Assembly: GCA_045118975.1 (NCBI GenBank) | Contig: JBGVCT010000016.1 | Coordinates: 28,199 to 92,198 of the forward strand | DNA from: Bacilli bacterium | GTDB lineage: Bacteria > Bacillota_I > Bacilli_A > RFN20 > DUOF01 | Reading direction: 5' to 3' | DNA length: 64,000 nt | Shown: positions 21,908 to 42,662 of the stretch, piece by piece | Layout: every line of letters begins with the position of its first letter | Numbering within the stretch: the first letter of the stretch is position 1 | Translations under genes and position numbers: made by a program | The notes under the pieces: model-generated | The model's database searches: none | Seen by the model: the letters and a program-made list of their open reading frames with translations, nothing else | Told to the model about the DNA's origin: nothing

Positions 21908-21910
21908 TGC

Positions 21911-23981: not shown

Positions 23982-24208
23982 ATTATACCTCCTGACATTT
24001 TTTACTATATCATGGAATTTTAAAAAAATAAATAGTTTTTTGAGAAAATATTTACAAGTAGTAAAAAACAAGATAAATTTATATGCAAGAAAGGAGGAAT
24101 TATTTTCTGTGCGTAAAGAAATGATACAAAATGAGACACCTGATTGATTGACATTATATATGAAAATGGTAAATAATCAGAATCAGGAAAGGGGAGAATT
24201 GATGTTAT

Positions 24209-24496
24209 ATGACCAGCAATCAAGAAAAAGAGAAGATTATTCTAAAAAGTAGTTTGACAAGAAAGGATATTATAGTTTTAACGGGATTAAACTATAAGGC
24301 AGTAACTAAGATATTCTTAAATATGAGAGAATCTATTTTAAAGAAACTTAGAAAAGATGATCCTGACTTTGAGTTCTACAATGTAAAGTATATTCCTACC
24401 ACGTATGCTTTACCTTACTTGAAGAAGTATGGAGTAGAAAGAGAAGTTATCTTGCTAAATGCTGACAGAGAAAGAAGTATTGTTATTGAACAATAG
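24209..24496 (+). CDS. small HTH protein (Cro/excisionase-like candidate)
   Basis: Predicted HTH LTGLNYKAVTKIF. Divergent from the repressor gene, with a TTGACA -35 in the intergenic region. Confidence 0.35.
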   Translation: MTSNQEKEKIILKSSLTRKDIIVLTGLNYKAVTKIFLNMRESILKKLRKDDPDFEFYNVKYIPTTYALPYLKKYGVEREVILLNADRERSIVIEQ

Positions 24497-25427
24497 ATTG
24501 AAGGAATCTTTAGACTATTTTCGACATAGAACAGATTTATATGAAACGCCTGAGATGGAACTTGCAATAAGTAACAAAGGATTTAATGTGTATGGGATAT
24601 ACTGTCTTTTGTGTGAAAAATCTAGTAGAAATATAAATAAACCTTTAATTTTAGATGACGATATGATGCATCTGTTAGCAAGAAAAGTGGGAATGTTGGT
24701 TGCAGAATTTAAAGAAAATGTAGAGGAACTAATCAAAAGGAATTTGTTTGATCAAAAAAGTTATTATGAAACTAGGGCAATAACTAATGGAATAATAGAA
24801 GAAGGTAAAGAAATAACTAAAAACAAACGAGCTTCAAAGCGTGGCGATTCCAAAAAGGAATTCCATTTTGATAAAATAGAACGCCAAACTAGCAAAACGT
24901 TTAATAATAGTAAAAGTAATATAAATAGTAATAGTAAGAATGATAGTAATAGTAACAGTAATAGTGAAATTAATATTTATAGTTATAGTAATATTGATAG
25001 TGAAACGGGGAATCCTATCAATATAACTGATAATGAGAATAATGAAGATTCATCGCTATTTGTTAATGGCGTTTTAATTGCTGATGCTAATGATCTTTAT
25101 AGAATCGTAGAAGAACTAATGGAAGCTAATATGAATGCAGGTATTAAAAATAGTATTGATTCATATATAGAAGAAAATGTTATTGCTTTAGCTAGGGCAT
25201 TAGAGAATTGTCAGAATTCTAAAACGCAAGCGATATCTTTTAATTATATCAAGAAGGCATATTCACAAGAAAAGTTAAAATTATGTTCAAAAAGTCTAAT
25301 TTTGTCGAATGATGTCGAAATCGAAAATGTAGAAGATGAAGTAGAAGAATTAGAACGTTTAAAAGAAGAAAGACGAAAACGTAAACTATTGCATGATGAA
25401 AATGATGATGAAAACAACTTTGATTAA
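24459..25427 (+). CDS. DUF4373 (Lin1244/Lin1753-like) N-terminal domain protein with an Asn/Ser-rich low-complexity linker. Phage replication-initiation associated.
   Basis: LDYFRHRTDLYETPEMELAISNKGFNVYGIYCLLCEKSSRN resembles the DUF4373 signature. Central NSNS repeats. Acidic C-terminus. Confidence 0.4.
   Translation: MLTEKEVLLLNNRLKESLDYFRHRTDLYETPEMELAISNKGFNVYGIYCLLCEKSSRNINKPLILDDDMMHLLARKVGMLVAEFKENVEELIKRNLFDQKSYYETRAITNGIIEEGKEITKNKRASKRGDSKKEFHFDKIERQTSKTFNNSKSNINSNSKNDSNSNSNSEINIYSYSNIDSETGNPINITDNENNEDSSLFVNGVLIADANDLYRIVEELMEANMNAGIKNSIDSYIEENVIALARALENCQNSKTQAISFNYIKKAYSQEKLKLCSKSLILSNDVEIENVEDEVEELERLKEERRKRKLLHDENDDENNFD
24895..25010 (+). repeat. AAT/AGT-rich simple-sequence tract encoding the (N/S)n linker
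   Basis: Near-tandem AATAGTAAT / AGTAATAGT units. Confidence 0.6.
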
Positions 25428-25450
25428 TAAAATTCTTTAAATTTTGAATA

Positions 25451-25492
25451 AAAGGGCTTTGGAGTATAAATTGCTTTGAAAGCTCTTTTTTG
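25451..25492 (+). terminator. probable rho-independent terminator after the DUF4373 gene
   Basis: Imperfect stem GGGCTTT/AAAGCTC with an 18-nt loop followed by T6. Confidence 0.35.
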
Positions 25493-25610
25493 TTTGGTGG
25501 TGAAGATAAAAACGCACAAATAGAAAGCAATGTAATTTATATCCTCACCGTAGGTGATGTGTGCAAAAATAATTAAATTGGTGTAGTTTTTTAATTAGCT
25601 TCTCGGTGGT

Positions 25611-25639
25611 TTTACTTTTACTCAATATTATGCTATAAT
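25611..25639 (+). promoter_or_regulatory. candidate promoter of the three-gene operon
   Basis: -35 TTTACT, 17-nt spacer, -10 TATAAT at 25634-25639. Confidence 0.4.
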
Positions 25640-25657
25640 ATTGTCCGTTATAAGGTC

Positions 25658-28474: not shown

Positions 28475-29654
28475 TACAGGAAGAAAAGAAAAAATGGTTA
28501 TAGGCGGGCACACTGTATTAGAAGATGTATATAAGGTCGATATTTCTACTTTATATTACAATGATGAAAATGGTAGAATAGCAACTTTTATTGCAGAATA
28601 TAAATCCAAAAGTGATGTTGCTATAAACGAGCTTTCATTTGATGAATATAATGAAACTATAATGCAATTTATCAAAGACTCTAGTAACAAAGATAAATAT
28701 AAAACTACTAAGGAAGATATAAAGAAAAACGGGCAATTGAGAATTGGTATCATTTTAGATGATGGTAGAGTAATTGACGGAAACAGACGTTTTACTTGTT
28801 TACGTGAATTATATAACGAAACCGGGGATGAAAGATATCAATATTTCGAATGCGTTATTTTAAAAGTACCTACAACTCTAAATGATAAAAAAATGATTAA
28901 ATCATTAGAATTGAAATATCAATTTGGAGAAGATGCTAGAGTAGATTATAATGCCATTGATAAATTAGTTGATGTATATAATCTTTTAGTGGGACCAAGT
29001 AGAATTTTTTCAATAAAAGAATATCGTGATCGTGTAAATAATCAAATCAAAGAAACTGATATAAAAAGAATGATGGTTAAAGCTGAAGTTATGTATGATT
29101 ATTTGGACTTTATAGGTATGAAAGAAAGATACGATATTGCTAGAGACTATAAATTAGATGGTCCAATTCAAGAAATAGCAGCACTAAAGTCTTCTTTATC
29201 AGACTTTGAGTGGAGCGAAGTAAGGCCAATTATGTATAAAGCCATGAAAGATGCAACTGGTGATAGAACAAGAGAAGTTCGTAGTCTAATAAAGGTATAT
29301 AAAAATAGTCCGTCAGAATTTGAAAAGATAAGAAATAATTTCTTAAATATCGAATTTAAGCAAGAACAAATCAAACATTCACAAGCAGAAGCAACCGAAG
29401 TTGTAACTAAAAAAGAAGAATTATCAGATTTAAAAGCAGAATATAAAGAACTTGTTAAGGATAGTATAGCTAAAACAGGAATAGATATGGCTAGAAAAAA
29501 ACAAAATGAGTTATTAAAAGGTGTAGTTAAGAAAATGTCTGAAATAGATAAAATATCGTTAAGACACTTACCTGAAGACTTGAAAAAAGAATTCATGCAA
29601 TATTTAAGTCAGTTAGAAATGGAAATTGCAATTTGTAAGAAGGAAATAGAATAA
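28440..29654 (+). CDS. ParB/DndB(DGQHR)-like N-terminal domain protein with DGNRR motif and a coiled-coil C-terminal half (candidate defence component B)
   Basis: VDISTLYYNDENGR ... LRIGIILDDGRVIDGNRRFTCLREL matches ParB-N/sulfiredoxin-fold boxes. Start ATG at 28440 with GGAGG RBS (track ORF starts upstream within the previous gene). Confidence 0.55.
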   Translation: MEMETKKIIAINTGRKEKMVIGGHTVLEDVYKVDISTLYYNDENGRIATFIAEYKSKSDVAINELSFDEYNETIMQFIKDSSNKDKYKTTKEDIKKNGQLRIGIILDDGRVIDGNRRFTCLRELYNETGDERYQYFECVILKVPTTLNDKKMIKSLELKYQFGEDARVDYNAIDKLVDVYNLLVGPSRIFSIKEYRDRVNNQIKETDIKRMMVKAEVMYDYLDFIGMKERYDIARDYKLDGPIQEIAALKSSLSDFEWSEVRPIMYKAMKDATGDRTREVRSLIKVYKNSPSEFEKIRNNFLNIEFKQEQIKHSQAEATEVVTKKEELSDLKAEYKELVKDSIAKTGIDMARKKQNELLKGVVKKMSEIDKISLRHLPEDLKKEFMQYLSQLEMEIAICKKEIE

Positions 29655-32227
29655 TGTTAGAGAAAGTTCATTTCAAATCATTATACAATTCTAAACAAGA
29701 TGATGTTATAAATGATTTTTATATTCCCGCATTATCTCAATCTAATGGTTATGACAGAATAAGCGCGTATTTTGATTCTAAAATTTTAAGAATGTATGCG
29801 GCGGGTCTAGAAAATATAAAAGATGGCGGGCGTGTTAGATTTATTTTTTCATGTGACCTTGATGAAGAAGATTATAACTTAATGAAGCAAGGATATGATT
29901 TAAGAGAAAAAATAAATTCAAAGTTACTTAATTCTATTTCAGATGAAGATGTTAATATTGATGTTTCAAATTTGGCGTATCTTATAGCTATTGGCGTAGT
30001 AGATATTAAGATTGCTTTTACTACTAAAGGAATTTTTCATGATAAATATGGGGTCTTTTCTGATTCTGAAGGAAACAAAGTATATTTTAGGGGATCGAAT
30101 AACGAAACTCTAGCTTCAATTATGTATAATTATGAAAGTTTTGAGACGTCTTGCTCATGGAATTGTGATGCGCGTGAAGAATTGAAAATTGACAATGCTG
30201 TTAGAACCTTTGAAGCTATATGGAATGATGAATTTCCAGAACTATATGTAATTCCGCTACCTGAATGTGTGAAAGAAAAACTTATAGGATATTCTTCTAA
30301 AGAAATATCTTCAATATATTATAAAAAAGAAAATTGTGCAATTTTTGATGTTGATGAACAATATCATTATACGTTGAATAATTTTTTAGATAACAAGTCG
30401 TTACTGGATACTCAAAGTAGTTTGTATAAGTATATTATACATCCTTATGTTGATTCTTACATTTCATATTCTGATACATATGTATTGAAGAATATTGGTT
30501 ATATGCAATTGAATAAACTGATTGTAGAAGTTAAAAAATATGCTTCACAATTAGGTTTTGATGTATACGTTGCTCCAAGACTAAGAAGGTTAATGTATGA
30601 AAGAGATATTTATATTGATAAGCGAAAAGACTTGGGAATTGCTATTAAACATAGAGACCCAAATTTAAATGAAGATTTCGAAAAATTTAAAAATATTATT
30701 AGTCAAGAGATGGTTAGAGAACTTCGTGAACCACAACAATGGGATGCTTATCATATAGCTAAAATGGTAAAATCTGCAAACTTTTCTGTTCCGGGAGCTG
30801 GTAAAACAACAATTGTATATGGTGCCTATGCCTATTTGGCAGCTATCAATAAAATTGATAAAATAGTTATGATTGGGCCTAAAAACTCATTTAGAGCATG
30901 GAAACAAGAATTTGTAGCAAACTTTGGTAATAAAAAAGAATTAAATGTATTAGATATACAAGCTAATAATGAACTTGACAAGAAATCTATGCTTAAGTAT
31001 CAATCAGATGATAAAAATTTAATTTTAGTTAATTATGAAAGCGTGCAAGGTGTGCTAGAAGAATTAACTTCGGCAATAAACGATAAAACATTGTTGGTAT
31101 TTGATGAAATTCATCGAATTAAATCTGTTAAGGGAAAAAGAGCAGAAGCTTGCCTTCGTTTAGCTAATAAAGCTAATTATAAAGTTGCTTTAACGGGAAC
31201 TCCATTACCAAATGGGTATGATGATATATATAACATGCTAAATATATTATTTTGCGATGAGTATAGTACATTTTTCGGATTTAAAGTTAACTATTTAAGA
31301 GAAGCTAGGTCTATATCTGCTTCACAAGATGCAATAAACAAGAAAATATTTCCGTTTTTTTGTAGAACTACGAAGAATGATTTACAAGTTCCGCCACCAT
31401 GCCAAGATGATACAGTTACTGGATATCTAGAAATGAATGATATTGAAGAAGAAATATTTTCTATAATTTATCGAGAATATTCATATAACACATTGATTTT
31501 ATATGTTCGTTTAACGCAGGCATCTTCTAATCCTGCATTATTGCTTAAATCAGTAGATAAAAATGATTTAGCTGATTTTGATGGGGATTGCGATGAAGAT
31601 GATTATGGTTTGTGGGATGAAATAGAGAAAGAAGATCATAAATTATCGAAAAAGGATTATGATTTTATCTTTAATAATATGACAACAAGAAAAATAGATA
31701 GATGTTGTGAGATAATTGAAGATAGGGTTCGCAATGGTGAAACTGTAGTAGCTTGGGGAATTTATATTGATAGTTTGAATTTGGTTTATGATAAATTGAC
31801 TTCAAAGGGAGTGAAAGCTGTAATAATAAGCGGAGCAACTCCTCAAGAAGTTCGCGATGAATATATTAATATGTTTTGTAATAAGGAAATAGATGTTTTG
31901 ATAACTAATCCACATACTTTAGCTGAGTCTGTTTCTTTGCATAAAACATGCCACTTTGCTATATATTTTGAGTATGATTTTAATTTAACTCATATGGTGC
32001 AATCTAGAGATAGAATTCACAGATTGGGGTTACCTGAAGGTCAAAAAACAGAATATTGTTATATGACGCTAAACTCAAAAACTAGTGAATATAATACTAT
32101 TGATGTAAAGATTTATGAAAGACTAAAAGAAAAAGAAAGAATAATGTTAGAGGCAGTTGAAAACAACGACATTGCTGTCGTTGAAGATGATTATATGGAT
32201 AATATTAATTTTATTTTACGTCGTTAA
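29654..32227 (+). CDS. PLD-like (HKD) nuclease domain fused to SNF2-family helicase (candidate defence component C)
   Basis: N-terminal HDKYGVFSD...GSNNET (HKD-like). SNF2 motifs PGAGKTT (I), LVFDEIHR (II), ALTGTPLPNGYDD (III), QSRDRIHRLG (VI). Start overlaps the upstream stop (TAATG). Confidence 0.75.
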   Translation: MLEKVHFKSLYNSKQDDVINDFYIPALSQSNGYDRISAYFDSKILRMYAAGLENIKDGGRVRFIFSCDLDEEDYNLMKQGYDLREKINSKLLNSISDEDVNIDVSNLAYLIAIGVVDIKIAFTTKGIFHDKYGVFSDSEGNKVYFRGSNNETLASIMYNYESFETSCSWNCDAREELKIDNAVRTFEAIWNDEFPELYVIPLPECVKEKLIGYSSKEISSIYYKKENCAIFDVDEQYHYTLNNFLDNKSLLDTQSSLYKYIIHPYVDSYISYSDTYVLKNIGYMQLNKLIVEVKKYASQLGFDVYVAPRLRRLMYERDIYIDKRKDLGIAIKHRDPNLNEDFEKFKNIISQEMVRELREPQQWDAYHIAKMVKSANFSVPGAGKTTIVYGAYAYLAAINKIDKIVMIGPKNSFRAWKQEFVANFGNKKELNVLDIQANNELDKKSMLKYQSDDKNLILVNYESVQGVLEELTSAINDKTLLVFDEIHRIKSVKGKRAEACLRLANKANYKVALTGTPLPNGYDDIYNMLNILFCDEYSTFFGFKVNYLREARSISASQDAINKKIFPFFCRTTKNDLQVPPPCQDDTVTGYLEMNDIEEEIFSIIYREYSYNTLILYVRLTQASSNPALLLKSVDKNDLADFDGDCDEDDYGLWDEIEKEDHKLSKKDYDFIFNNMTTRKIDRCCEIIEDRVRNGETVVAWGIYIDSLNLVYDKLTSKGVKAVIISGATPQEVRDEYINMFCNKEIDVLITNPHTLAESVSLHKTCHFAIYFEYDFNLTHMVQSRDRIHRLGLPEGQKTEYCYMTLNSKTSEYNTIDVKIYERLKEKERIMLEAVENNDIAVVEDDYMDNINFILRR

Positions 32228-33608
32228 TAATGGACAAAATAAATGATCTATCCAACCAGAAACAGTGTTTAGTATAATATGCTAAACCTGTTTTTTTATC
32301 TGGAACTGGTAAAATGTATCCACCACCACTTTTGTCTATACCAGTAGAGTCATGTGGTCTAACGTGACAAATGTGATTAAATGTACTTCCTGGGAAGTTA
32401 GTAAAATATTTTCCTGCTGAATATGAATTTACTATATCACCAGATTTGATAATTTTTTGAGTGTATTCCCATGTTTCTTTTACTTCTTTATCAAGTATTT
32501 CTAAAGGCATGTTCCAAAATTTAATTTTATCTAGATAGTAAACGCCATTTTTCTTCTTGAAAACAACAAACATATATTTAGTTGTATCAAATTTTTCTCT
32601 TAATTCAGAGGATTCCCACGTTTGCTCTGCAATATCTATATATTTAAATGTAGGAAAAGACATATGCTCTTTAATTTTGCCATTTTCTTCAATTCTAATT
32701 GTTTTTAATTCTAGATTTGCTTTTCTAAATTCATCGGTATTATTGATGTGACCGTTGAAACCTAACATTGCGCCAGTTAATACATTAAATCTGCTTTTTA
32801 GGGCAGGATTATTAGGTATGCCAAATTTTTCAAATAACTCGACTTCAGACATACCATAGTAAGGTTTTAATTTTTGATCCATAATTGCTTCAAATGTTGA
32901 ATTTTTAAGTTCTTCAAAAGAAACTATAGATTTACATTTTTCTCCAATAAGATTTTTATTTATTATTGTATTGATATATGAAGGCTTTAAGCAGTATGCT
33001 CTTTGTTTGGCTAATTTATCTGAAGCAGGTTGTTTTCTATAACTGCTTGCAGCATCTTTTCCTTTGGTGCAAGCGCCTAAATACATTGTGTCTGCTTCTG
33101 ACAAAGTATCAGCTAGTCCGTTATTAATTTTATCTACTATTAATTGCCAATCGTATTTTATTATTTCTAAATCTTCTTGAGAAAATGAATGAAGAATTGA
33201 ATCGATAAGATAAAAGTCGAAATCCTCTTTTTCTTCGTATAAATAAAACATTAATAATAGAGACATGTTTTTCTTCCAAAAAGTGCTATCTTCAAATGGG
33301 ATATTATATTCCAACATATAGTCAATGATATTAAGAACAAGTCTTTCTTTAGCTACATACTCATTATTTTTTAGTTTTTTTAGACCAGTTACTTTTAATT
33401 CTACGCCTAAATCAGCAAAATCAGCTTCAGGGCGAGAATTAGGAGGATAGTGAAAGACTCCTTCTTCAATAATTTGACCAATAACACCTTTATTGTTTTT
33501 TGCTAATGAGCGGTTATTAATATTGTATTCTGATATTCTATGACCACTTGTTTGCTTAGCAATTTCAAGTAGTTCGTTTGCTGAACTATATTTTGGTATT
33601 GTATTCAT
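32211..33608 (-). CDS. Sau3AI-like type II restriction endonuclease (tandem MutH/Sau3AI-fold domains, probable GATC specificity)
   Basis: Long collinear similarity to Sau3AI: GVELK..KKLKN..KERLVLNII, DYEIIKYDWQLI, LGACTKG, KQPASDKLAKQRAY and C-terminal ICHVRPH. Confidence 0.8.
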   Translation of the reverse strand: MNTIPKYSSANELLEIAKQTSGHRISEYNINNRSLAKNNKGVIGQIIEEGVFHYPPNSRPEADFADLGVELKVTGLKKLKNNEYVAKERLVLNIIDYMLEYNIPFEDSTFWKKNMSLLLMFYLYEEKEDFDFYLIDSILHSFSQEDLEIIKYDWQLIVDKINNGLADTLSEADTMYLGACTKGKDAASSYRKQPASDKLAKQRAYCLKPSYINTIINKNLIGEKCKSIVSFEELKNSTFEAIMDQKLKPYYGMSEVELFEKFGIPNNPALKSRFNVLTGAMLGFNGHINNTDEFRKANLELKTIRIEENGKIKEHMSFPTFKYIDIAEQTWESSELREKFDTTKYMFVVFKKKNGVYYLDKIKFWNMPLEILDKEVKETWEYTQKIIKSGDIVNSYSAGKYFTNFPGSTFNHICHVRPHDSTGIDKSGGGYILPVPDKKTGLAYYTKHCFWLDRSFILSIINDVK

Positions 33609-33746
33609 GTTATATCGCCTTCTTTATAGAAAAATTATAGCAAATAAAAATAAAGGGCACATTTATTTTAGAGATATTTCAAAAAAAACTTGATCAAGAC
33701 AGAAGTTTGTGATATGATTATAGTGTTTTGAAAGAGGTGAATCCGA

Positions 33747-34991
33747 GTGAATAAAAGTGTAGTTGAATTATTTGCTGGTGTAGGTGGTTTTAGAGTAGGA
33801 CTTAATAAAATCAAAAATATAGATAACAATGGTAAAGCAGTAGAAAATGGTGATTGGGATTTTGTGTGGGCTAATCAATGGGAACCTGCAACAAGAACTC
33901 AAGATGCTTTTGATTGTTATATAAAAAGATTTGGTAAAGATAGTTGTTCTAATGAAGATATAACTACTGTTATTAAAGAAAACATTCCTGACCATACATT
34001 ATTAACTGGTGGATTCCCTTGCCAAGATTACTCTGTTGCTAGAACAAAATCTGGCGAAAAAGGAATTGAAGGTAAAAAAGGTGTTTTATGGTGGCAAATC
34101 AATGACATCTTATTAGCTAAAAAGCCTCCATTTGTTTTATTAGAAAATGTAGATAGACTAATAAAAGCTCCTGCTAGACAAAGAGGTAGAGATTTTGGAA
34201 TTATTTTAAGATGTTTAAATGATGCTGGTTACTGTGTTGAATGGAGAGTAATTAATGCTGCAGAATATGGACATCCTCAAAAGAGAAGAAGAACATATAT
34301 ATTTGCATATAACAAAAATACAAACTATTACACTCAACAATGTAATGTGACTCCAGAAGAAATCTTATTAAATAAAGGTATGTTTGCTAAATCATTTCCT
34401 GTATCTAAGTTAGCTACTAAAGTTAGCCAAACAGATTTAAGTTCTAATTCATATAATGATTTAGTAGATATGACAGCAGAATTTAAATTCAACTTTGAAA
34501 ATAGTGGATACTTATGTGATGGTATTGTATATACAGCTAAAACTCAACCTGTATTGGAAGATCCAATCACATTATTCCAAATTAGAGAACAAGACAGCGT
34601 TGATGCAAAATATCAATTAACGAAGAATATAGATAAGTTCATATATTTAAAAGGAAGTAAAAAAATACCTAGAGTATCTAAAACTGGTATGGAATATAAT
34701 TATTCTGAAGGCAAAATGTCTTTCCCAGATAGATTAGATATGCCAGGTAGAACAATGCTTACAAGTGAAGGAACAGTAAATAGAAGTTCTCATGTAATAA
34801 GCGACTTACAAACTGGTATGTTAAGAATTATTACTCCAAAAGAAGCAGAAAGACTTAACCAATTCCCAGATAACTGGACTAATTCAGGAATGACAGATTC
34901 AAAGAGATACTTCATGATGGGAAATGCATTAGTTTGTGGCGTAATTGAAAAAATTGGTAATCAATTAAATGAAATTATAGACTGCGAATAA
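33747..34991 (+). CDS. DNA (cytosine-5)-methyltransferase, cognate of the Sau3AI-like endonuclease
   Basis: Motif I ELFAGVGGF, motif IV GGFPCQDYS, motif VI LLENV, motif VIII QKRRR. Confidence 0.9.
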   Translation: MNKSVVELFAGVGGFRVGLNKIKNIDNNGKAVENGDWDFVWANQWEPATRTQDAFDCYIKRFGKDSCSNEDITTVIKENIPDHTLLTGGFPCQDYSVARTKSGEKGIEGKKGVLWWQINDILLAKKPPFVLLENVDRLIKAPARQRGRDFGIILRCLNDAGYCVEWRVINAAEYGHPQKRRRTYIFAYNKNTNYYTQQCNVTPEEILLNKGMFAKSFPVSKLATKVSQTDLSSNSYNDLVDMTAEFKFNFENSGYLCDGIVYTAKTQPVLEDPITLFQIREQDSVDAKYQLTKNIDKFIYLKGSKKIPRVSKTGMEYNYSEGKMSFPDRLDMPGRTMLTSEGTVNRSSHVISDLQTGMLRIITPKEAERLNQFPDNWTNSGMTDSKRYFMMGNALVCGVIEKIGNQLNEIIDCE

Positions 34992-35015
34992 TTATATAAT
35001 TTTTATGGATGTTTT

Positions 35016-35047
35016 GTGAGAACATTTTGAGAACACTTTTTGGAAAA
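35016..35047 (+). repeat. GAGAACAYTTT direct repeats just inside attR (match the 21911-21975 cluster)
   Basis: GTGAGAACATTTTGAGAACACTTTTTGG. Confidence 0.45.
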
Positions 35048-35149
35048 TTGATTCTAAGCAATACTAAATTGGTGCGAAAAATAGTGAAAAATGACTAAAA
35101 ATATGGTGTTTTTACTATAAAAACCGAGTGTTTGCATACAATCATATGC

Positions 35150-35166
35150 CTCCCTAGCCCCACCAA
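35150..35166 (+). repeat. attR core: second copy of CTCCCTAGCCCCACCAA
   Basis: Exact 17-mer match to the tRNA-Leu 3' end at 21845-21861, not part of a complete tRNA here. Confidence 0.8.
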
Positions 35167-35178
35167 GTGTGTCGTATG

Positions 35179-35208
35179 CGAACACCTTATCCAGGTGTTC
35201 GTTTTTTA
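35179..35208 (+). terminator. rho-independent terminator (probable original tRNA-cluster terminator displaced by island insertion)
   Basis: CGAACACC-TTATCCAG-GTGTTCG hairpin followed by T6, 12 nt after attR. Confidence 0.6.
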
Positions 35209-35237
35209 ATACAAAATCTTCATCAACTCCATTACAA

Positions 35238-35265
35238 AGAATACATGAACAGTATTCTTTTTTTG
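35238..35265 (+). terminator. second hairpin-T-run terminator
   Basis: AGAATAC-ATGAAC-AGTATTCT hairpin followed by T6. Confidence 0.5.
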
Positions 35266-35311
35266 TTTTATTAATATTCTGTTATAATAATATAAATTGG
35301 TGGTGAATTAG

Positions 35312-36772
35312 GTGAAAAAAGTAAATTTATTTGATATTTCTAAACTGCATGATAACAAAGCTATCAGTGAGATATATGTAAGATATTTGGCTGACTTTCC
35401 AGATGAAAAACAATATAGACACGAAGAAATTAAATATATAAATGAATTATTGAAAATACTTAATATAGAAACTGAAGAAGTAGAAGATTTTTATTATGGT
35501 TATGAAGTTCCACAATTAAATAAGGAGTTTGATTTACTTAAGGTTACAAAAGAGTCTGTATTAAACATAGAACTAAAAGGAACCGTGGATGATGAGTTGA
35601 AAATACTAGAACAGTTGAAGAAAAACTTGCACTATTTAAAACTTCTAAATAGAAAATGCTATCAGTTCACCTATTTATCTAAAGAACAAAAATTGTTCAA
35701 ATTGAATAAAAACAAACTAGAGGTCATAGATTTTGATGAATTGTATGAAGTAATTAAATCAATATCTCAAGAGGACATTGACGAAGTTTACTTAGATGAA
35801 TATTATAAACCAAATGTTATTTTGGTTTCTCCACTTAATAATCCTAAAAGATTTATAAGTAATTCATACTTACTAACTGAAAATCAGGAAAATATAAAAA
35901 AAGAAATAATTAATGATTTAGAAATTAATAACAAGAAATATTACGCTATTCATGGGAATGCAGGAACTGGAAAAACATTACTACTATATGATATTGGGAA
36001 AACACTTTCTGAAAATAAAAATATTCTTCTTATCCATTCTGGTATTATTTGTAAAGGACATAGCTTTTTGAATAAAAATATGGAAAAATTTAAGATAATT
36101 TCAGCAAAAGATTTAAAGTACAAAGATTTAAGAAATGTTGATGTTTTGCTTGTTGACGAAGCTCACAGATTGTATAGAGAAGATTTAGAAAAAATAATAA
36201 AATGGGTAAATAAGAAAGTTTACTCTTGTATTTTTTCTTTTGATGGAAAGCAAGTCTTATCTTATAGTGAAGAACGAAGGCAAACAACAGAAAATATAAA
36301 ATTCATATGCAAAGGAAGATTACACAAATTAACAAATAAAATTAGAACAAATAAAGAAATTTCCTTATTTGTACAATGTTTATTTGATTTGAGTAAGTAT
36401 AGGGATGAATACAAATTTGCTAACGTTAAAATTGTTTATGAGCCAGACAAACTTAAAGCGGTTGAAAGGGCAAAGAATGCTTTGGGTTACACATATATAT
36501 CATATACAGGTTCTTTTTATAATCATGATATAGACTACCAATTTTCTCAACATAATACTCACAATGTCATTGGTCAAGAATTCGATAGGGTATGTATGAT
36601 CATGGGAAATGAATTTTATTATAAAAACAATAAATTAAAAGGATATACTCATCCCACTCCGGACTATATTTATACTCAATTGTTATATCAAGGATTAACG
36701 AGAGCTCAAACTGGTGTGCTTTTAATAATAACTGATATTGAGCTTTTGAAAAGCATATTAAACCTGATTTAG
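35312..36772 (+). CDS. NERD/PD-(D/E)xK-like N-terminal domain fused to an SF1 (DUF2075-like) P-loop ATPase/helicase. Nhi-like candidate defence nuclease-helicase.
   Basis: N-terminal FDLLKV...VLNIELKG (D...E-x-K). Walker A HGNAGTGKT, Walker B LLVDEAHRL, motif VI-like GLTRAQTGVLLI. GTG start with GGTGGTGA RBS and a TATAAT at 35287. Confidence 0.55.
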   Translation: MKKVNLFDISKLHDNKAISEIYVRYLADFPDEKQYRHEEIKYINELLKILNIETEEVEDFYYGYEVPQLNKEFDLLKVTKESVLNIELKGTVDDELKILEQLKKNLHYLKLLNRKCYQFTYLSKEQKLFKLNKNKLEVIDFDELYEVIKSISQEDIDEVYLDEYYKPNVILVSPLNNPKRFISNSYLLTENQENIKKEIINDLEINNKKYYAIHGNAGTGKTLLLYDIGKTLSENKNILLIHSGIICKGHSFLNKNMEKFKIISAKDLKYKDLRNVDVLLVDEAHRLYREDLEKIIKWVNKKVYSCIFSFDGKQVLSYSEERRQTTENIKFICKGRLHKLTNKIRTNKEISLFVQCLFDLSKYRDEYKFANVKIVYEPDKLKAVERAKNALGYTYISYTGSFYNHDIDYQFSQHNTHNVIGQEFDRVCMIMGNEFYYKNNKLKGYTHPTPDYIYTQLLYQGLTRAQTGVLLIITDIELLKSILNLI

Positions 36773-36821
36773 AAAGAAAAAGTTGAATTTTATTAGATTT
36801 GTAATGAATGGAGGAAAATAA

Positions 36822-38066
36822 ATGAAGGTATCCAGCGCAATAAGTGAAGTATTAAACGTATTGAAAATCCCTAATGAAGAAAGAAGACTACTTCATGATA
36901 TTTATATAATTAAATATAGTGATAATATTAAATCGGAAAAAGATTATGATAAATTAAGAAATAATCCAGAATATCATCTTGTTGGTAGAGAAAAAATACG
37001 AAAGTATAACTCGGCATTTGAGCACTTATATAATTCTTTAGGTCTTGAGGTGGCAGGACTATCATCAAATGAATTTAGAAAGAAAATTGAGCAATTACTA
37101 TTTTTTGACAATTTTACTGAGGAAAAAATTAGAGAAAAATTGAAAAGTATACCTCTGCAACACTATCATTGTGTAGATAAAATATATGGGATAAACATAG
37201 AAAATGATATGCTAGTATTAGGAAAATACACATTATTAAATCCTATTTATATATCTCATTACTTAAAAGAAAAAATAGAAGCAAAAAACCATCACTATAT
37301 AGATGATTTTATAGATACAGAAGAAAATGCAGATAAATTCATATACGTTATTTGTGATTATTCAGGTAAAGGCGTTGATTTACCAAGGGAAAAATTTGAT
37401 ATGGATTTAGCGACCTTTATAAATATTCTTAGATATATGATTCGAATAAAAAATTCAAGACTTAACATAGATTTAAGTGCATATAATCCAAGGCAGCTAA
37501 ATAAATTTCAATTTTCTGATGAGGGTAGTATCTATAGTAGTTTTAAGATAGATAGAAAAGATGTGACAATTACATTGTATGAAGACTATATTACAGATAT
37601 TGATTTGGGTTTTAATAAAATTTGGGAAATAACTAATAAAGATAACAAAAATGATTTTGAAAATAGAATTATGCTTGCTATAGATTGGGTTGGACAGTCT
37701 CTTCAAGAAAATAATGATGATATGTCAATATGTAAACTTGCTTTTGCATTTGAGTCATTATTTCATGTGCAAAAAGATAATATGATAAGCCCAAGTATTC
37801 AATATAGTATTGCAGAGAGTGTCGCTTTCCTAATTGGAAAAACGCCTGAAGAAAGGATAAATATAAAAAAAAGATTTAAGGAATTTTATTCTCATAGATC
37901 TTCAATTGTTCATGGTGGAAGTTCTAAAAAGAAGAGTGATTATGACTATTTCTTGTCATTATTAATAGGGTCCATTTCGTATTTATTGACTGATGAAAAT
38001 TTTGCGAATTGTAAAAACGGAGAAGATATATCCAATATTCTTGATATGAACTTTAAGTTTAAATAA
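36822..38066 (+). CDS. hypothetical protein with C-terminal HEPN-like helical domain (Rx4HGG motif)
   Basis: C-terminal helices ending in FYSHRSSIVHGGSS (R-x4-H, the HEPN RNase signature). Co-directional, 50 nt after the upstream gene. Confidence 0.4.
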   Translation: MKVSSAISEVLNVLKIPNEERRLLHDIYIIKYSDNIKSEKDYDKLRNNPEYHLVGREKIRKYNSAFEHLYNSLGLEVAGLSSNEFRKKIEQLLFFDNFTEEKIREKLKSIPLQHYHCVDKIYGINIENDMLVLGKYTLLNPIYISHYLKEKIEAKNHHYIDDFIDTEENADKFIYVICDYSGKGVDLPREKFDMDLATFINILRYMIRIKNSRLNIDLSAYNPRQLNKFQFSDEGSIYSSFKIDRKDVTITLYEDYITDIDLGFNKIWEITNKDNKNDFENRIMLAIDWVGQSLQENNDDMSICKLAFAFESLFHVQKDNMISPSIQYSIAESVAFLIGKTPEERINIKKRFKEFYSHRSSIVHGGSSKKKSDYDYFLSLLIGSISYLLTDENFANCKNGEDISNILDMNFKFK

Positions 38067-38374
38067 AAATTGAGAGCTTTATTTAGCTAAATAAAGTTTA
38101 AAATAGAAATAATAACCTTTTAAATATAACAGTTCGTTTTCTATATTTTGAGTTCCACCATATCTAAATAATTACTCTGATACAATCGTGTATTGGAGTT
38201 TTTTTATACCAATTCATAGTAAAATAGGAAAGGTTTGGATGTTTCAAGTGTATTTGTCCTTAAGTAATGTTTAAATGATGCAGTTGTAAGGACTCTAATA
38301 TAGCGAGGTTTAGTTTAAGTATCATTATCTGTATTATGTAGGCGCGTAATGGATCAAGATCAAAAAAACAAGCA

Positions 38375-38402
38375 AAAAAGGCATCCGAAGATGCCTTTTT
38401 TG
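38375..38402. terminator. bidirectional rho-independent terminator
   Basis: GGCATCCGAAGATGCC hairpin flanked by an A-run upstream and a T-run downstream. Confidence 0.65.
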
Positions 38403-38540
38403 AAAACCTCCACAGTCTATTACACGAGCAATAGATAGCTTTGAATACACACATATATTACTTAATTTTACACTATTTGTCAAATATAAGTTATAATAAT
38501 GTGTACAATATATAGTATGAACTGTTGTTGTAAATTTATA

Positions 38541-39386
38541 CTAAATCATAAAATATATTTTTAAATTTTCTTTTATCTTTTGAATTTCCTCTTCAGTTAA
38601 TTCAATAGTTAGTTGGGTGTTTTTATCAATCAAAGGTTTTACAAAACGTTTAATACTGATTCGTTTTCCGTCATTTAATTTAATAATATTTGTTTTTCCG
38701 TCAATAATTTTTTTAATATTATAATAGTAATTCTTTTTTGGGATTTTGCTAGTTATTGGAAAAACAAAATATGAACTATCTTCTTTATTTTCTGTATTAA
38801 CGTGTTCCTTCCAAACTAAGACAGGTCTTAATTTGTTTATTTCAGAACCTACGTTATTTCCAATATAAGCAAAGTAAATTCTATATTGTACAATATCAAG
38901 TTTAGATTTGTATTTTGAAAATTTAATATCTTCTTTTGTAATGGCCCATTCTAGATATTTAAGCATTTGCTCTGTTAGTGTTATATCATTCAATTTTCCA
39001 TCAATGAGATTGCTGCCTATGGTTGTATTACACTTTGTACCAAAGTCTATCAATAATTTATCTACTATTGATTTGGTGACTAAATCAAATTCATATGGTG
39101 TAGCTATTACTTCTTTTCCTTTTAAATGAAGTTGACGTTGCATTTGATGTTTGTTTATTTTTTCATATGTTCCAAGTATGTAAACTTTATTTAAATTGTT
39201 TATAGTAATATATTTAGAAGTTGATTCAGGTTCAACTAATTTTGCCATTAAGACAAAAGGTTTAACATCAGTATCTCCAAGATAAATTCCTATTTGTTCT
39301 TCACCATTTTCGTCTAGATATGAATATATATTTTTAGGAAATAATTGTACTTTCATTTTTGTCACCTCTAATATTAAGTATATCAT
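38541..39386 (-). CDS. MazF/PemK-like toxin domain (C-terminal ~120 aa) fused to an unknown ~160-aa N-terminal domain
   Basis: C-terminal region IYFAYIGNNVGSEINKLRPVLVW...YFVFPITSK...IIKLNDGKRISIKRF aligns with the MazF G-SEQ-G-RP-VV and downstream motifs. Confidence 0.5.
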   Translation of the reverse strand: MIYLILEVTKMKVQLFPKNIYSYLDENGEEQIGIYLGDTDVKPFVLMAKLVEPESTSKYITINNLNKVYILGTYEKINKHQMQRQLHLKGKEVIATPYEFDLVTKSIVDKLLIDFGTKCNTTIGSNLIDGKLNDITLTEQMLKYLEWAITKEDIKFSKYKSKLDIVQYRIYFAYIGNNVGSEINKLRPVLVWKEHVNTENKEDSSYFVFPITSKIPKKNYYYNIKKIIDGKTNIIKLNDGKRISIKRFVKPLIDKNTQLTIELTEEEIQKIKENLKIYFMI

Positions 39387-39474
39387 ATATTCCTTGTTTT
39401 TTTAATAAATAATATGGCTTATAATATGTTGCTTTGATATGATTTAGATAACATTAAACAGAGGATAGGTTAAT

Positions 39475-39786
39475 ATGGTAGGCAAATATAAAGTTATTAC
39501 ATTATGTGGAAGTACTAAATTTAAGGAAGAGTTTTTAAGAGAACAAAAAAGACTAACGTTAGAAGGCAATATAGTAGTTTCAGTAGGCTTGTTTGGTCAT
39601 AGTGGTGACAACGAAGTTTGGAGTGAAGGAACTAAAGAAATGTTAGATGATATGCATAAAAGAAAAATAGATATGGCGGATGAAATATTTGTTATAAATA
39701 AAGATGGATATGTTGGTAGTAGTACTAAATCGGAGATAGAATACGCAATTAAAACAAACAAAAAAGTTGTTTATATGGAAAATTGA
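39475..39786 (+). CDS. hypothetical small protein (103 aa), possible Rossmann/SLOG-like nucleotide-binding mini-domain
   Basis: Pattern KVITLCGSTKF...LEGNIVVSVG resembles the glycine/serine-rich first strand-loop of LOG/SLOG-type folds. Weak. Confidence 0.35.
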   Translation: MVGKYKVITLCGSTKFKEEFLREQKRLTLEGNIVVSVGLFGHSGDNEVWSEGTKEMLDDMHKRKIDMADEIFVINKDGYVGSSTKSEIEYAIKTNKKVVYMEN

Positions 39787-39956
39787 TCTTATAACGATTA
39801 CTTAAAGCGAATTATTAAAGGGGGATAAAGAAAAATAAGCAAAAAAGGCGAGGCTTCAAAAAGTGTATGCACAACCAAATGTAAAGCATAAGTTGGATAC
39901 AATAGTGTTCAACTTTTTTTGCTTATATAAATGGTTGTGCTATTATAATTAAGGAG

Positions 39957-40586
39957 ATGATTGGTGTGAAAAACAAGCTAGTTACCAAAGAAGCTCATAA
40001 TGCGATAGCAGAAAAGTATTATGAATTATATAAAGATGATATATCAGATTTGAAATATTTTGATTTATTTTTAGAATGTTGTAAATCTAAAATTTTGGAT
40101 TTAGGATGTGGTATGGGACATTATTCAAATTATATGTATAATAAAGGATTTGATGTTGTGGGTATTGATTTTTCACAAAATATGATAAATATAGCAAAAA
40201 AAGATAATCCAAACATTAATTTTATTGTTTCAGATATTTGTGATTTAGATGTGATAAAAAATCAAAAATTTGATGGAGTTGTCATAGCGTATGTTTTACA
40301 ACATTTATCTAAAGAAGAAGTTTTAGATTTATTTGTACAAATAAATAATATAGTTAATGATAATTCTAAACTATTAATATTTTTAAGAGAAGGTAATGGT
40401 ATTGTTGAGGAAGTAGAACCCATTGATACAAGATATAAATATGTAATAAACGAATATTCTAAAGGGGAAATAAGCGAAATTTTAATAAAAAATGGGTGGA
40501 AGATAAATTTAATAGATACAAAAGAATATATAGAAGACCCTAACTCTCTTGCTCCCAATACCTTGGTTATATTGGCGGAAAAATAG
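39957..40586 (+). CDS. class I SAM-dependent methyltransferase
   Basis: Motif I ILDLGCGMGHYS. Motif II DGVVIAYVLQHL. Confidence 0.7.
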   Translation: MIGVKNKLVTKEAHNAIAEKYYELYKDDISDLKYFDLFLECCKSKILDLGCGMGHYSNYMYNKGFDVVGIDFSQNMINIAKKDNPNINFIVSDICDLDVIKNQKFDGVVIAYVLQHLSKEEVLDLFVQINNIVNDNSKLLIFLREGNGIVEEVEPIDTRYKYVINEYSKGEISEILIKNGWKINLIDTKEYIEDPNSLAPNTLVILAEK

Positions 40587-40629
40587 CCTTTTATTTATGT
40601 GTTGATTTTTAGTAAGAGCAAATAAAATT

Positions 40630-41607
40630 GTGGGTATTTGTGATATATTGTATATGGATGGTGGTTGTAGTATGGTTATGAAAGATTCTAATTTTATCGA
40701 GTCATTGAAGAATTTAGATAAAGAAAAATTAGCAATGATACCAAAGGCGGATTTACATAATCATGCTGTTTTTTCTTGTGGGAGAGACTACTTGGCTATG
40801 AATAATGTTGATATTCCTTTAGATCAAAGAGTTAATAATATTAGTGATTTAATAAATTTTGCTAGAAAATATATTAAACCCCTACAAAATAATAAAGAAG
40901 GATTATATGTATTGTTAAATGGAACTTTCAAAAAATGCTTAGAAACTGGTGTAACTATAGTTGATACAAATATTGACTATAAAATATGTATTCAAGTGTT
41001 TGATAACAATGTTAGTGAGTTTGTGAATTTCCTTAAATATTTTACATATGAAAACTTAAAGGTTCATTGGATAATTGATATTAGTAGGGATAGTTATTTG
41101 CAAGAATATGAAGAAATCATTATTGAATTAATTAAAACAGGTTTTTTCTATGGAATAGATTTAACTTCAACAGAAAATTGTCTACCTAATATAATGTTTA
41201 AAAATATTTATGAATTGGCAAATAAAAGCGGGTTAATAACAAAAGTTCATTGTGGTGAACAATTGGGAGCAGATTATATAAAAGAGTGCATCAATGATTT
41301 TAATCCTAAGCAAATTCAACATGGTATACGTATTGTGGAAAGTGAAGATGTAATGAAATTAGCAAAATCAAAAGGGATAGTATTCAATGTGTGTCCTACA
41401 AGTAATCTTGTTTTAAATTATGCGAAAAGTTTAAAGGAACATCCAATATCTTATATGGTATATTATGGATTGAATGTTACTATAGGAACAGATGATATTT
41501 TATTATTTGAAAGTGATATAAATGATGAATATATAAAATTATATGAGAATAAGGTATTAACTGCAGAACAGTTGGATAAGATACGCGAGTTCTCTTTAAG
41601 GGTATAA
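40630..41607 (+). CDS. adenosine/adenine deaminase-like amidohydrolase
   Basis: ADLHNHAV (metal-binding HxH), VHCGEQ (HAGE-like), GTDDIL (C-terminal Asp ligand). True start probably the internal Met (MVMKDSNF). Confidence 0.55.
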   Translation: MGICDILYMDGGCSMVMKDSNFIESLKNLDKEKLAMIPKADLHNHAVFSCGRDYLAMNNVDIPLDQRVNNISDLINFARKYIKPLQNNKEGLYVLLNGTFKKCLETGVTIVDTNIDYKICIQVFDNNVSEFVNFLKYFTYENLKVHWIIDISRDSYLQEYEEIIIELIKTGFFYGIDLTSTENCLPNIMFKNIYELANKSGLITKVHCGEQLGADYIKECINDFNPKQIQHGIRIVESEDVMKLAKSKGIVFNVCPTSNLVLNYAKSLKEHPISYMVYYGLNVTIGTDDILLFESDINDEYIKLYENKVLTAEQLDKIREFSLRV

Positions 41608-41740
41608 TGATATATAGTATCGCTATATTTTGCTTTGTTTAATTTTTGTGTTTGAAAAATAGTCTCGGTTATTGCAATGATAAAATGCGCGAGGTATAAT
41701 AAGTATGAAAAGTATAATTTGTTATACTATAGGAGGCTAT

Positions 41741-41938
41741 ATGAAAGATAAGTTTGTGGGAATTGCAAGAGTTGGAGAAAAAGGACAAATAGTAATACCT
41801 AAAGAGGCTAGAGATATGTTTGGAATTAAGCCAGGGGATTGTGTTGTGGTACTATGTGATAAAAAGAAAGGAATGGCACTAGTTAAATCTGAAGCATTAG
41901 AGGATGTTATAGATAAAGTAATGCCTGAAATTGATTAG
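41741..41938 (+). CDS. AbrB/MazE/SpoVT-family DNA-binding protein (65 aa)
   Basis: GIARVGEKGQIVIPKEARDMFGIKPGDCVVV looped-hinge-helix signature. AGGAGG RBS before ATG at 41741. Confidence 0.65.
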   Translation: MKDKFVGIARVGEKGQIVIPKEARDMFGIKPGDCVVVLCDKKKGMALVKSEALEDVIDKVMPEID

Positions 41939-42662
41939 TATGTATTCTATTGAGGTAAGTAAGCTAACTAAAAAGTTTAAAGAAAAAGTTGCAGTAAATG
42001 AGATGGATTTGCAAATTAAGCAAGGTGAATTATTTGCTCTTCTTGGAACTAATGGTGCTGGTAAGACAACAACAATTAAGATGTTAACAGGATTAATATT
42101 GCCTACATCTGGAAATATTAAAATAGAAAATATGGATATGAAAAAAGATATATTTAAAATCAAAGAAATTTTAAATGTATCACCGCAAGAAACTGCTATT
42201 GCTCCTAATTTGACTGTTAAGGAGAATTTAGAGTTTATGGCGGGAGTATATCAAATAGATAATAAGGATATGAAAATCAAAGAACTTGTTAAACAATTTA
42301 AATTGGATGAGATATTAAATAAAAAGGCTAAAACTTTGTCTGGTGGATGGCAAAGGAGATTATCAATTGCAATTAGTTTAATTAATGATCCAAAAATATT
42401 ATTTTTAGATGAACCAACATTAGGTTTAGATGTAATATCAAGAAAAGAGTTATGGGATATAATTAGTAATTTGAAAGGTAAGATTACAATTATTTTAACT
42501 ACTCATTATATGGAAGAAGCAGAGAGTTTGGCTGATAGAGTTGGTATAATGTCAAATAGTAATCTAGTTGATGTAGGGACAGTTGAAGAATTGATTAAGA
42601 AAACTAATAAAAAGAATTTCGAAGATGCTTTTGTATCGATTGCAACTGGAGGTAAATTATAA
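41931..42662 (+). CDS. ABC transporter ATP-binding protein
   Basis: Walker A GTNGAGKTTT, signature LSGGWQRR, Walker B ILFLDEPT. Confidence 0.85.
   Translation: MISMYSIEVSKLTKKFKEKVAVNEMDLQIKQGELFALLGTNGAGKTTTIKMLTGLILPTSGNIKIENMDMKKDIFKIKEILNVSPQETAIAPNLTVKENLEFMAGVYQIDNKDMKIKELVKQFKLDEILNKKAKTLSGGWQRRLSIAISLINDPKILFLDEPTLGLDVISRKELWDIISNLKGKITIILTTHYMEEAESLADRVGIMSNSNLVDVGTVEELIKKTNKKNFEDAFVSIATGGKL

Follow-up and report, generated by a model that had tools for sequence, protein, structure and literature searches.

The present study concerns a toxin gene and the small RNA gene next to it in a stretch of 64,000 nucleotides (nt) from a Bacilli bacterium (assembly GCA_045118975.1, contig JBGVCT010000016.1, positions 28,199 to 92,198 of the forward strand). 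This whole stretch is called the window, and positions are counted from its first letter unless another locus is named. An earlier note, made from the letters of the window alone, had pointed to a MazF/PemK toxin domain that is fused to an unrecognised N-terminal extension and has no obvious antitoxin gene beside it. It was found that a structured RNA gene with its own promoter and terminator lies directly behind the toxin gene, and that the two genes co-occur strictly in related loci. The missing partner of the toxin is most likely this RNA.

The toxin gene and its protein product

The open reading frame (ORF) at 38541-39386 on the minus strand was confirmed from the window sequence and codes for 281 amino acids. 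Its true start is Met11 of this frame, the ATG at 39356, which has the ribosome-binding site AGAGGTG ahead of it at about 39364-39370. The start is placed there because all the homologues are about 270 amino acids long and begin at that methionine. From the ORF list, the sequence and the homologues the gene is therefore taken to span 38541-39356 (minus strand, stop codon TAG at 38541-38543) and to encode a tandem MazF-fold protein of 271 residues. The homologues form 22 clusters of about 270 amino acids each, and conservation spans their full length. A consensus scan gave a candidate weak promoter at 39377-39405 (minus strand; TTAAAA-17-TATACT with a TG, 9 of 12 matches). The DNA upstream of the homologous toxin genes is not conserved and is not alignable (alignment A6).

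The C-terminal domain (residues 155-271, about 117 amino acids; 38544-38894, minus strand) can be identified as a true MazF/PemK member of PF02452 in which the catalytic Arg and Thr are in place. The PemK_toxin profile PF02452 matches residues 169-278 of the 281-residue frame with E=2.2e-7 and 31.5 bits (gathering cut-off 23.1 bits), covering positions 4-108 of the 109 in the profile, and the domain is present in 22 of 22 homologues. A model of the full protein was built with AlphaFold2 (AF2) on the 22-sequence alignment and has a mean predicted local distance difference test (pLDDT) score of 86. When the C-terminal domain was compared with the PDB by Foldseek, it matched MazF of B. subtilis, S. 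aureus, B. cereus and M. tuberculosis with target-normalised template modelling (TM) scores of 0.7-0.78, and it has the MazF fold of an SH3-like barrel with a C-terminal helix. In the alignment to B. subtilis EndoA/MazF, GSEINKLRPVLVW falls on GSEQGGVRPVLVI and FPITSK on AAITAQ. R177 (codon at 38826-38828, minus strand) is thereby aligned with R25, and T202 (codon at 38751-38753, minus strand) with T48 of the B. subtilis protein, in which R25 and T48 are known as the catalytic pair. No family member deviates from Arg at position 177, and at position 202 all have Thr or Ser. The domain is strongly basic, with a net charge of about +9 and a pI of 9.6 across the family. The proposal of a C-terminal MazF domain is thus borne out by the profile score, the fold matches and the EndoA alignment, and the loss of catalytic residues, which the earlier note had regarded as fatal to it, is not the case since both R177 and T202 are present.

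The N-terminal region had been described as unrecognised by sequence and this holds true. Residues 1-155 gave no match in Pfam, NCBIfam, PADLOC or PHROGs when the full protein was the query, and nothing matched when all 22 N-terminal segments were searched against Pfam or their profile against the sequences of the PDB. The AF2 model of residues 1-152 (pLDDT 88, predicted TM (pTM) score 0.78) has seven beta-strands and then a long helix, with a second helix after it. By this model and by Foldseek, residues 1-118 (39003-39356, minus strand) are predicted to form a degenerate MazF/CcdB-like domain. The top match in the PDB is S. aureus MazF (4mzp_E; E 4.8e-4, TM 0.67, 113 columns, 13% identity), and further matches are E. 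coli MazF, CcdB of two species and the type III toxin CptN. CptN is among the structural matches of both domains, as a distant one (TM 0.47). The N-terminal copy is without the catalytic Arg-Pro and Thr/Ser motifs and its charge is near neutral. The earlier note had offered a fused antitoxin or a sensor as explanations for this region and had proposed structure prediction to check them. The prediction gave a MazF/CcdB-like fold, and no sign of a known antitoxin or a known sensor was seen.

The N-terminal profile was also searched against 1.84 billion representative proteins. It had 26 matches, each with the architecture of about 270 amino acids or a fragment of it, so that in this search the domain is never alone and never fused elsewhere, and the family is rare. 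On a separate 1-kb contig (L035, 66-692) a protein of 208 amino acids, P0023, has the N-terminal domain joined to a hydrophobic, membrane-like C-terminus and not to a MazF domain; recombination, a frameshift or a chimeric assembly could explain it. The two domains of the window protein are connected by a linker (residues 119-154; 38895-39002, minus strand), for which the AF2 secondary structure gives a short beta-hairpin and a helix at 125-146, and in which the alignment columns of E129, W137 and K141 are invariant. That the linker acts as a MazE-like intramolecular plug is only an idea.

Taken as a whole, the protein is predicted to be a tandem of two MazF/CcdB-type folds, of which the C-terminal one is intact and the N-terminal one degenerate, and the model suggests that it is probably a single-chain pseudo-dimer. 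Matches of the full-length model in BFVD included several phage 'PemK-like' proteins of 226-266 amino acids, for example A0A4D5ZZC5 (246 amino acids, 260 aligned columns, TM about 0.4). Phages may encode further long or tandem proteins with the MazF fold.

The small RNA gene and its conservation

A small RNA gene of about 89 nt is located at about 38362-38450 on the minus strand, as delimited by alignments A3-A5, folding, a covariance model and a terminator scan. It follows the toxin gene immediately, in the same orientation and without overlap, and there is no terminator between the toxin stop codon and the RNA. Its promoter at 38455-38483 (minus strand) consists of the -35 box TTGACA (38483-38478), a 17-nt spacer and the -10 box TAATAT (38460-38455), with 10 of 12 matches in a consensus scan. 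The RNA begins with a 5' leader ahead of hairpin 1 (38414-38440, from the alignment and covariation), which is followed by the single-stranded stretch GUGGAGG (38407-38413, from the alignment) and by UUUUCAAAAAAGG, which runs into the terminator stem (38373-38402, from the terminator scan). The U-tract at 38362-38372 closes the gene, all of these parts being on the minus strand. A long intergenic gap lies behind the toxin gene in every homologous locus, and the alignment of these gaps brought out the element. In the family as a whole (alignment A3) the element is made up of TTGACA, exactly 17 nt of variable spacer, a TAnnnT -10 box that is often an extended -10 with TG, an RNA of about 85 nt and a strong terminator. 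The family RNA forms a hairpin and then the single-stranded (Y)GUGGAGG-UUUCAAAAG, and its conserved core is GGAGG-UUUCAAAA, which reads GUGGAGG-UUUCAAAA in the window.

The fold of the window RNA has an energy of -27.3 kcal/mol and a z of -5.1 relative to shuffled sequences. In 16 sequences hairpin 1 is 98.4% paired and has compensatory changes in 4 pairs, one pair being GC in 8 sequences and AU in 6, and none of 500 shuffles was as good. In divergent loci the stem sequence is replaced outright, the pairing is kept, and the GGAGG core and the terminator still follow. The stem is TCTATT/AATAGA in most loci, CCATG/CATGG in L013, CGTGT/ACACG in L029, CATGATTC/GAATCATG in L030 and CCAC/GTGG in L037, and the two stems of L036 are CGCGG/CCGTG and CACGG/CCGTG. 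With the covariance model a single copy was detected in the 64-kb window (79.7 bits; next best match 19 bits), and related loci score 59-92 bits. A search of Rfam 15 over 34-44 kb of the window returned only chance-level matches (STnc130 with 30 bits against 55 and Thr_leader with 24 bits against 55). Differences in loop length and indels among the loci break the reading frames across the conserved 3' region. The element is not coding, because these indels are not multiples of three.

The RNA element is present 3' of the toxin gene and on the same strand in 19 of the 19 distinct toxin loci with enough 3' DNA, including clades at about 35% protein identity. The TTGACA box, the 17-nt spacing and the TAnnnT box are kept in nearly all loci and the spacer sequence varies. 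A few loci have a promoter-like sequence only. L017 has TTGATA, and in L005 and L016 the scan did not detect the pattern. Compared with the window copy, the RNA is 67-86% identical, the coding sequence 54-77%, third codon positions 42-61% and upstream DNA 48-63%, so the small RNA is better conserved than the sequence that codes for the toxin. Two RNA copies follow a single toxin gene in L007 (2484-2565 and 2665-2747; the same in L014) and in L036 (about 1270-1345 and about 1490-1560). Each of the L007 copies and the second L036 copy have their own promoter-like sequence, and the doubling looks like an increase in dosage. Among the loci, L015 and L019 come from bins labelled Bacteroidales and Prevotella and the others are from Bacillota or are Mollicutes-like; the two labels reflect either horizontal transfer or mis-binning.

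The RNA can also be found by itself. A scan of metagenome and viral collections with the RNA pattern gave 9 loci, of which 3 are complete elements and 6 are chance matches. One complete element (L023) is tied to a toxin gene. The other two are orphans with no toxin gene nearby, and both keep the promoter, the hairpin, the GGAGG core and the terminator. One of them lies between a helicase gene and a Fic gene (L024, 7372-7454, plus strand). The second lies on a 53-kb contig of IMG/VR, UViG_3300045988_125659 (L028, 5918-6000, minus strand), and adjoins an FtsK-like gene, an orphan DNA methyltransferase and an invertase. Homologues of the toxin were not found in IMG/VR. An 88-residue phage ORF beside the orphan RNA was considered as a relative of the N-terminal domain and was rejected (hhalign probability 4.6%). 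Thus, no toxin gene without the RNA was met among the 19 loci, and the RNA occurs occasionally without the toxin gene.

Other sequence features surround the RNA gene. Directly after the toxin stop codon there is a conserved, GCATATAAT-like box (38499-38520, minus strand; from alignment A3 and folds), which reads TCATACTATATATTGTACACAT in the window and GCATATAATAAT..TGTAAnCAC in most loci. It may be a second promoter for a longer RNA or a stem in a read-through 3' untranslated region (UTR). Some of its bases are complementary to the 5' end of the small RNA. A segment upstream of the -35 box of the RNA is likewise complementary to the RNA 5' end, and the two arms covary in some loci. The duplexes are more stable than those of shuffles in no more than 6 of 15 loci, with a mean z of -1.5, and an inverted repeat around the RNA promoter is accordingly only partly supported as a universal stem. 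Two terminator-like hairpins at 38157-38199 and 39874-39915 have near-identical loops (GATACAATnGTGT). A short repeat, AAGCAAAAAAGGC, occurs at 38364-38382 and 39831-39849 and flanks the pair formed by the MazF gene and the neighbouring 103-residue ORF. The RNA model has a weak match at 39837-39902 (minus strand; 17.8 bits, E 0.69). This match and the repeat could be due to chance or could be the relic of a second RNA copy.

Genomic setting and the search for a protein partner

The region from 21429 to 39470 looks like an integrative defence island. It starts with a tRNA cluster (Ile, Asn, Glu, Thr, Leu) at 21429-21860, after which there are genes for an integrase, a helix-turn-helix protein, a Lin1244-like protein, two unknown proteins of 938 and 422 amino acids and an SNF2 helicase. 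These are followed by a MutH/Sau3AI-like nuclease with a C5 methylase, AbiO/Nhi (PADLOC E 1e-128) and an unknown protein of 414 amino acids, and the tandem-MazF gene is the last cargo of this tRNA-adjacent island of about 17 kb. Repeats of the att type bounding the island were not found by blastn with short words. The SNF2 cluster of the island may be an undescribed system. The 414-residue ORF (36822-38066, plus strand) separates AbiO/Nhi from the tandem-MazF gene. Neither Pfam nor PADLOC gave a match for it, and it matches phrog_28161 with E 1.9e-7. Near its C-terminus there is an R-x4-H motif (RSSIVHGG) reminiscent of HEPN nucleases. The protein could be a second component that works with AbiO/Nhi or a separate defence gene.

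In other genomes the homologues adjoin AbiH, an Eco47II restriction-modification pair or a prophage end. Their neighbours also include leucine-rich repeat proteins, NUDIX and phosphatase genes, a recombinase and RNase III, and in the prophage case the gene lies between an ImmA peptidase gene and the integrase. Comparison of the homologous loci revealed no protein neighbour in common, and the 103-residue and 414-residue neighbours in the window are without homologues in the related loci. No Pfam match was obtained for any ORF of 40 or more amino acids in 38.2-39.8 kb, overlapping and antisense frames included. The absence of a MazE-type gene from the locus, on which the earlier note had remarked, is therefore upheld, as there is no antitoxin-like domain in the small ORFs and no common neighbour, and a canonical MazE on another frame, which would have spoken against that note, was not found in the Pfam scan of this interval.

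The earlier note had named the ORF of 103 amino acids at 39475-39786 as the only neighbour, and this ORF does exist; it has a weak match to DUF4406 (E=0.02). It belongs to a large conserved family of at least 8000 homologues, the top 120 of which are 86-100% identical, and the same identity holds across more than 100 clusters. There is no tie between this family and the rare fusion family. In a related genome the 103-residue gene lies 200 bp after a tRNA, and it is for this reason regarded as the chromosomal flank of the island. As part of a huge conserved family, absent from the related loci and flanking the island, it was rejected as a partner of the toxin. The genes at 39475-41607 (plus strand) are the 103-residue ORF, an S-adenosylmethionine-dependent methyltransferase and an adenosine-deaminase-family protein, and they may form a small operon for nucleoside modification or salvage.

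A protein of the AbrB/MazE family is encoded 2.3 kb off, at 41705-41938 (plus strand; 77 amino acids, PF04014, E 1.8e-9). Its gene shares 8 nt with the start of an ABC-transporter ATPase gene (41705-42662, plus strand, for the pair) and is outside the island. It was rejected as the antitoxin, being coupled to the ABC transporter and missing from other loci. The two genes are a regulator–transporter pair.

Interpretation and comparison with known systems

The reading that we favour, with a confidence that is about evenly balanced, is that the locus encodes a type III-like protein–RNA module with a toxin–antitoxin or abortive-infection function. An RNA partner is likelier than a fused antitoxin or a use of the MazF fold outside toxin–antitoxin systems, the two options of the earlier note, because the toxin gene is followed by a conserved RNA gene that has a promoter and a terminator of its own. 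The distribution, too, follows the pattern of a toxin–antitoxin pair, because the toxin is always with the RNA and the RNA is sometimes alone, is autonomous and strongly promoted, is sometimes duplicated and has one copy on a mobile element. The place of the gene in a defence island, and the defence and prophage neighbours of its homologues, also speak for such a module, which would probably serve in abortive infection. What the sequences show is the anatomy of the locus: the two domains with the catalytic residues, the lack of a protein partner, the structured and conserved RNA gene that accompanies the toxin gene strictly, and the island around them. Toxicity, binding of the RNA to the protein, neutralisation, the pseudo-dimer and a part in defence are inferred from it.

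In such a module the C-terminal copy would act as the nuclease, as it keeps the catalytic Arg and Thr of the MazF endoribonuclease, and the N-terminal copy would replace the second subunit. Canonical MazF works only as a dimer, and for this reason the N-terminal copy can be seen as a stand-in; the outcome would be an intramolecular pseudo-dimer with a single active site. The antidote would be the RNA of about 89 nt encoded right after the toxin gene. It would be made in excess over a weakly expressed toxin mRNA because it has its own near-consensus promoter, and the toxin mRNA would probably read through into the RNA because there is no terminator between the two. It could be possible that the hairpin and the single-stranded GGAGG-UUUCAAAA core bind the basic RNA groove as a pseudo-substrate, and that the toxin is thereby held inactive. 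On transcription shut-off or RNA degradation, for example in phage infection, the labile RNA would be lost and the free toxin would cleave cellular or phage RNA. That the GGAGG-UUUCAAAA core reports the target motif of the toxin is speculation. Orphan copies of the RNA may be anti-defence decoys or remnants of a lost module.

Several observations weigh against this interpretation. With no array of tandem repeats in the RNA, and with the RNA gene behind the toxin gene instead of ahead of it, the locus is unlike every described type III system. The best-conserved motif of the RNA resembles a Shine-Dalgarno (SD) sequence, which may mean another role, for example an interaction with the ribosome or with mRNA. 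The pTM of the full-length model is 0.58 compared to 0.78 for the N-terminal part, so the orientation of the domains is moderately confident and the geometry of the pseudo-dimer is put forward conditionally. When the profiles of the N- and C-terminal halves were compared by hhalign, only a strand of 7-8 residues matched (E 0.02). Because of the shortness of this match, an origin of the tandem by duplication is plausible but unproven. Lastly, just one orphan RNA copy is on a mobile element, and the L028 contig that bears it may not be phage.

The protein–RNA interpretation can be taken further, to an undescribed class of module, which we hold only tentatively and consider rather unlikely as a whole. 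Here the toxin would combine a live and a dead MazF fold in one chain, as a heterodimer within a single polypeptide, and each toxin molecule would be neutralised by one molecule of a small RNA that stands free and has its own promoter. The hairpin and the GGAGG-UUUCAAAA core would mimic the natural target, perhaps Shine-Dalgarno regions, so that release of the toxin stops translation initiation, and mobile elements would capture the RNA alone as an anti-defence decoy, as the L028 orphan suggests.

Other explanations have to be considered for the same data. The protein might be a self-contained toxin or Abi protein, in which the N-terminal fold or the Trp-bearing linker helix inhibits the nuclease in cis until a trigger arrives, and in which the RNA does no more than tune expression, for example by stabilising the 3' UTR, by aiding its processing or by insulating transcription. 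The invariant E129, W137 and K141 of the linker helix and the occurrence of the N-terminal domain only in fusion with the nuclease would fit this view. The RNA is probably also part of the 3' UTR of the toxin mRNA, because no terminator follows the stop codon, and in several loci the sequence upstream of its promoter pairs with its 5' end. Against this view, that complementarity is significant in 6 of 15 loci only, and the RNA keeps its own near-consensus promoter in nearly all loci, is complete without the toxin gene in L024 and L028, is duplicated in some loci and is more conserved than the coding DNA. We therefore regard a self-contained toxin as unlikely. Somewhat more doubtful still is a role outside toxin–antitoxin biology, in which a protein with a non-toxic MazF fold binds or processes RNA, the small RNA is its substrate, cofactor or guide, and the SD-like GGAGG steers the particle to ribosomes or particular mRNAs. 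The strict co-occurrence of gene and RNA would be expected from such a particle, the single-stranded GGAGG is complementary to the anti-SD of 16S rRNA, and the tandem architecture, as modelled, may offer one asymmetric RNA site. On the other hand the family has few members, which are patchily distributed (22 clusters at 90% identity, 26 at 50%), and its contexts are variable, mobile and rich in defence genes and are not conserved operons, which fits accessory defence or addiction genes and not housekeeping; the catalytic residues of a destructive RNase are also kept.

Control of the type I kind, in which the small RNA base-pairs with the toxin mRNA and blocks translation or promotes decay, is highly improbable in our judgement. 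The RNA adjoins the toxin gene and, on inspection of the sequence, the pyrimidine-rich strand of its terminator is partly complementary to SD-like sequences. It is not a cis-antisense RNA, however, because it is on the same strand as the gene and does not overlap it, and its duplexes with the translation-initiation regions of 11 loci were no better than shuffles (mean z +0.18). The 5' regions of the toxin genes are not conserved, and known type I toxins are small hydrophobic peptides, while the present protein is a soluble, nuclease-type protein of 271 amino acids and neither an antisense RNA nor a small hydrophobic toxin is seen. Type I-like control is thus weakly refuted. An ordinary type II MazEF with an overlooked antitoxin, either the AbrB/MazE gene at 41705-41938 or an unannotated small ORF, is the explanation in which we place the least belief. 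It draws on the presence of a 77-residue PF04014 protein 2.3 kb away; as set out above, this protein belongs with an ABC ATPase outside the island and no such gene lies beside any homologue. The small ORFs near the toxin have no antitoxin-like domain and the frames across the conserved region downstream are broken by indels, so that an overlooked type II antitoxin is, as far as the sequences tell, largely refuted.

To our knowledge MazF, which is among the best-studied bacterial toxins, has always been described as a homodimer under the control of a protein antitoxin. The type III toxins, which are controlled by RNA, are regarded as families of their own that are MazF-like in structure only. 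Our literature searches turned up neither a tandem or fused MazF nor a PemK toxin whose antitoxin is an RNA. The database label of the present proteins is "type II PemK/MazF family toxin". The module is invisible to standard annotation because of this type II label, because PADLOC does not recognise it and because the RNA is in no Rfam family.

The likeness to the type II toxins MazF/PemK/Kid (EndoA; B. subtilis structures 4MDX and 4ME7, S. aureus 4MZP) lies in the Pfam score, the fold, and the GSE..RP and I-T-S/A motifs with the catalytic Arg and Thr. Canonical MazF, however, is a homodimer of chains of about 110 amino acids encoded downstream of a MazE/PemI protein antitoxin. The present protein has 271 amino acids with a second, degenerate MazF-like fold in the same chain and a conserved downstream RNA gene, and no adjacent protein antitoxin (MazE/PemI; AbrB, ribbon-helix-helix or similar) was found. 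The module is not a type II MazEF, because it has neither a protein antitoxin nor a toxin of about 110 amino acids. CcdB shares the SH3-like barrel with the C-terminal helix, and the N-terminal domain matches CcdB structures as well. CcdB itself is a gyrase poison, a homodimer paired with the CcdA protein, and nothing here suggests that gyrase is targeted.

In the type III systems ToxIN, CptIN, TenpIN and AbiQ the protein is an endoRNase from the MazF/Kid/CcdB structural superfamily and its partner is a non-coding RNA. These systems occur on mobile elements and in defence islands. It has been reported that type III toxins share the MazF/Kid fold and that phages escape ToxIN by means of pseudo-ToxI, which mimics the antitoxin RNA (PMC5086642); the orphan RNA on a mobile element parallels this phage-borne pseudo-ToxI (PMC5086642). 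As in type III systems, a non-coding RNA encoded in cis is conserved with the toxin gene, in 19 of 19 loci. Described type III loci have tandem repeats of 34-45 nt upstream of the toxin, a terminator between the two and one promoter, and the toxin processes the array. The present RNA, in contrast, is a single unit, occasionally two, which lies downstream and has its own promoter, and no ToxI-like intergenic tandem arrays were found in the window or in L005, L007 and L009. PemK_toxin is the only Pfam family above threshold and PADLOC gave no match, which places the protein outside the ToxN/AbiQ, CptN and TenpN sequence families.

A closer parallel in the nature of the RNA is offered by AbiF of C. 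difficile, which is neutralised by direct binding of the structured, non-repeat RNA RCd22 and has been described as type III-like (PLoS Genet 2025, PMC12373285). AbiF is a member of the Cas13-linked Abi_2/AbiD/F family and abiF motifs are present in its RNA partner, and there is no sequence or Rfam relation to the RNA of this study.

If the protein–RNA interpretation is true, the locus would be a compact candidate phage-defence module of one gene and one RNA in gut Bacillota (Firmicutes), and a MazF that is monomeric, has one active site and comes with its own RNA inhibitor could serve as a tool for RNA cleavage. Because there is no upstream repeat array and the toxin is outside the ToxN, CptN and TenpN families, the module does not belong to the described type III systems and appears to be a new variant outside ToxIN, CptIN and TenpIN; by analogy it may nonetheless work like a type III system. 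A PemK-family nuclease that carries a second, dead version of its fold and has a small RNA as its partner would then link the type II and type III classes, and would suggest one route by which control by a protein can pass into control by an RNA.

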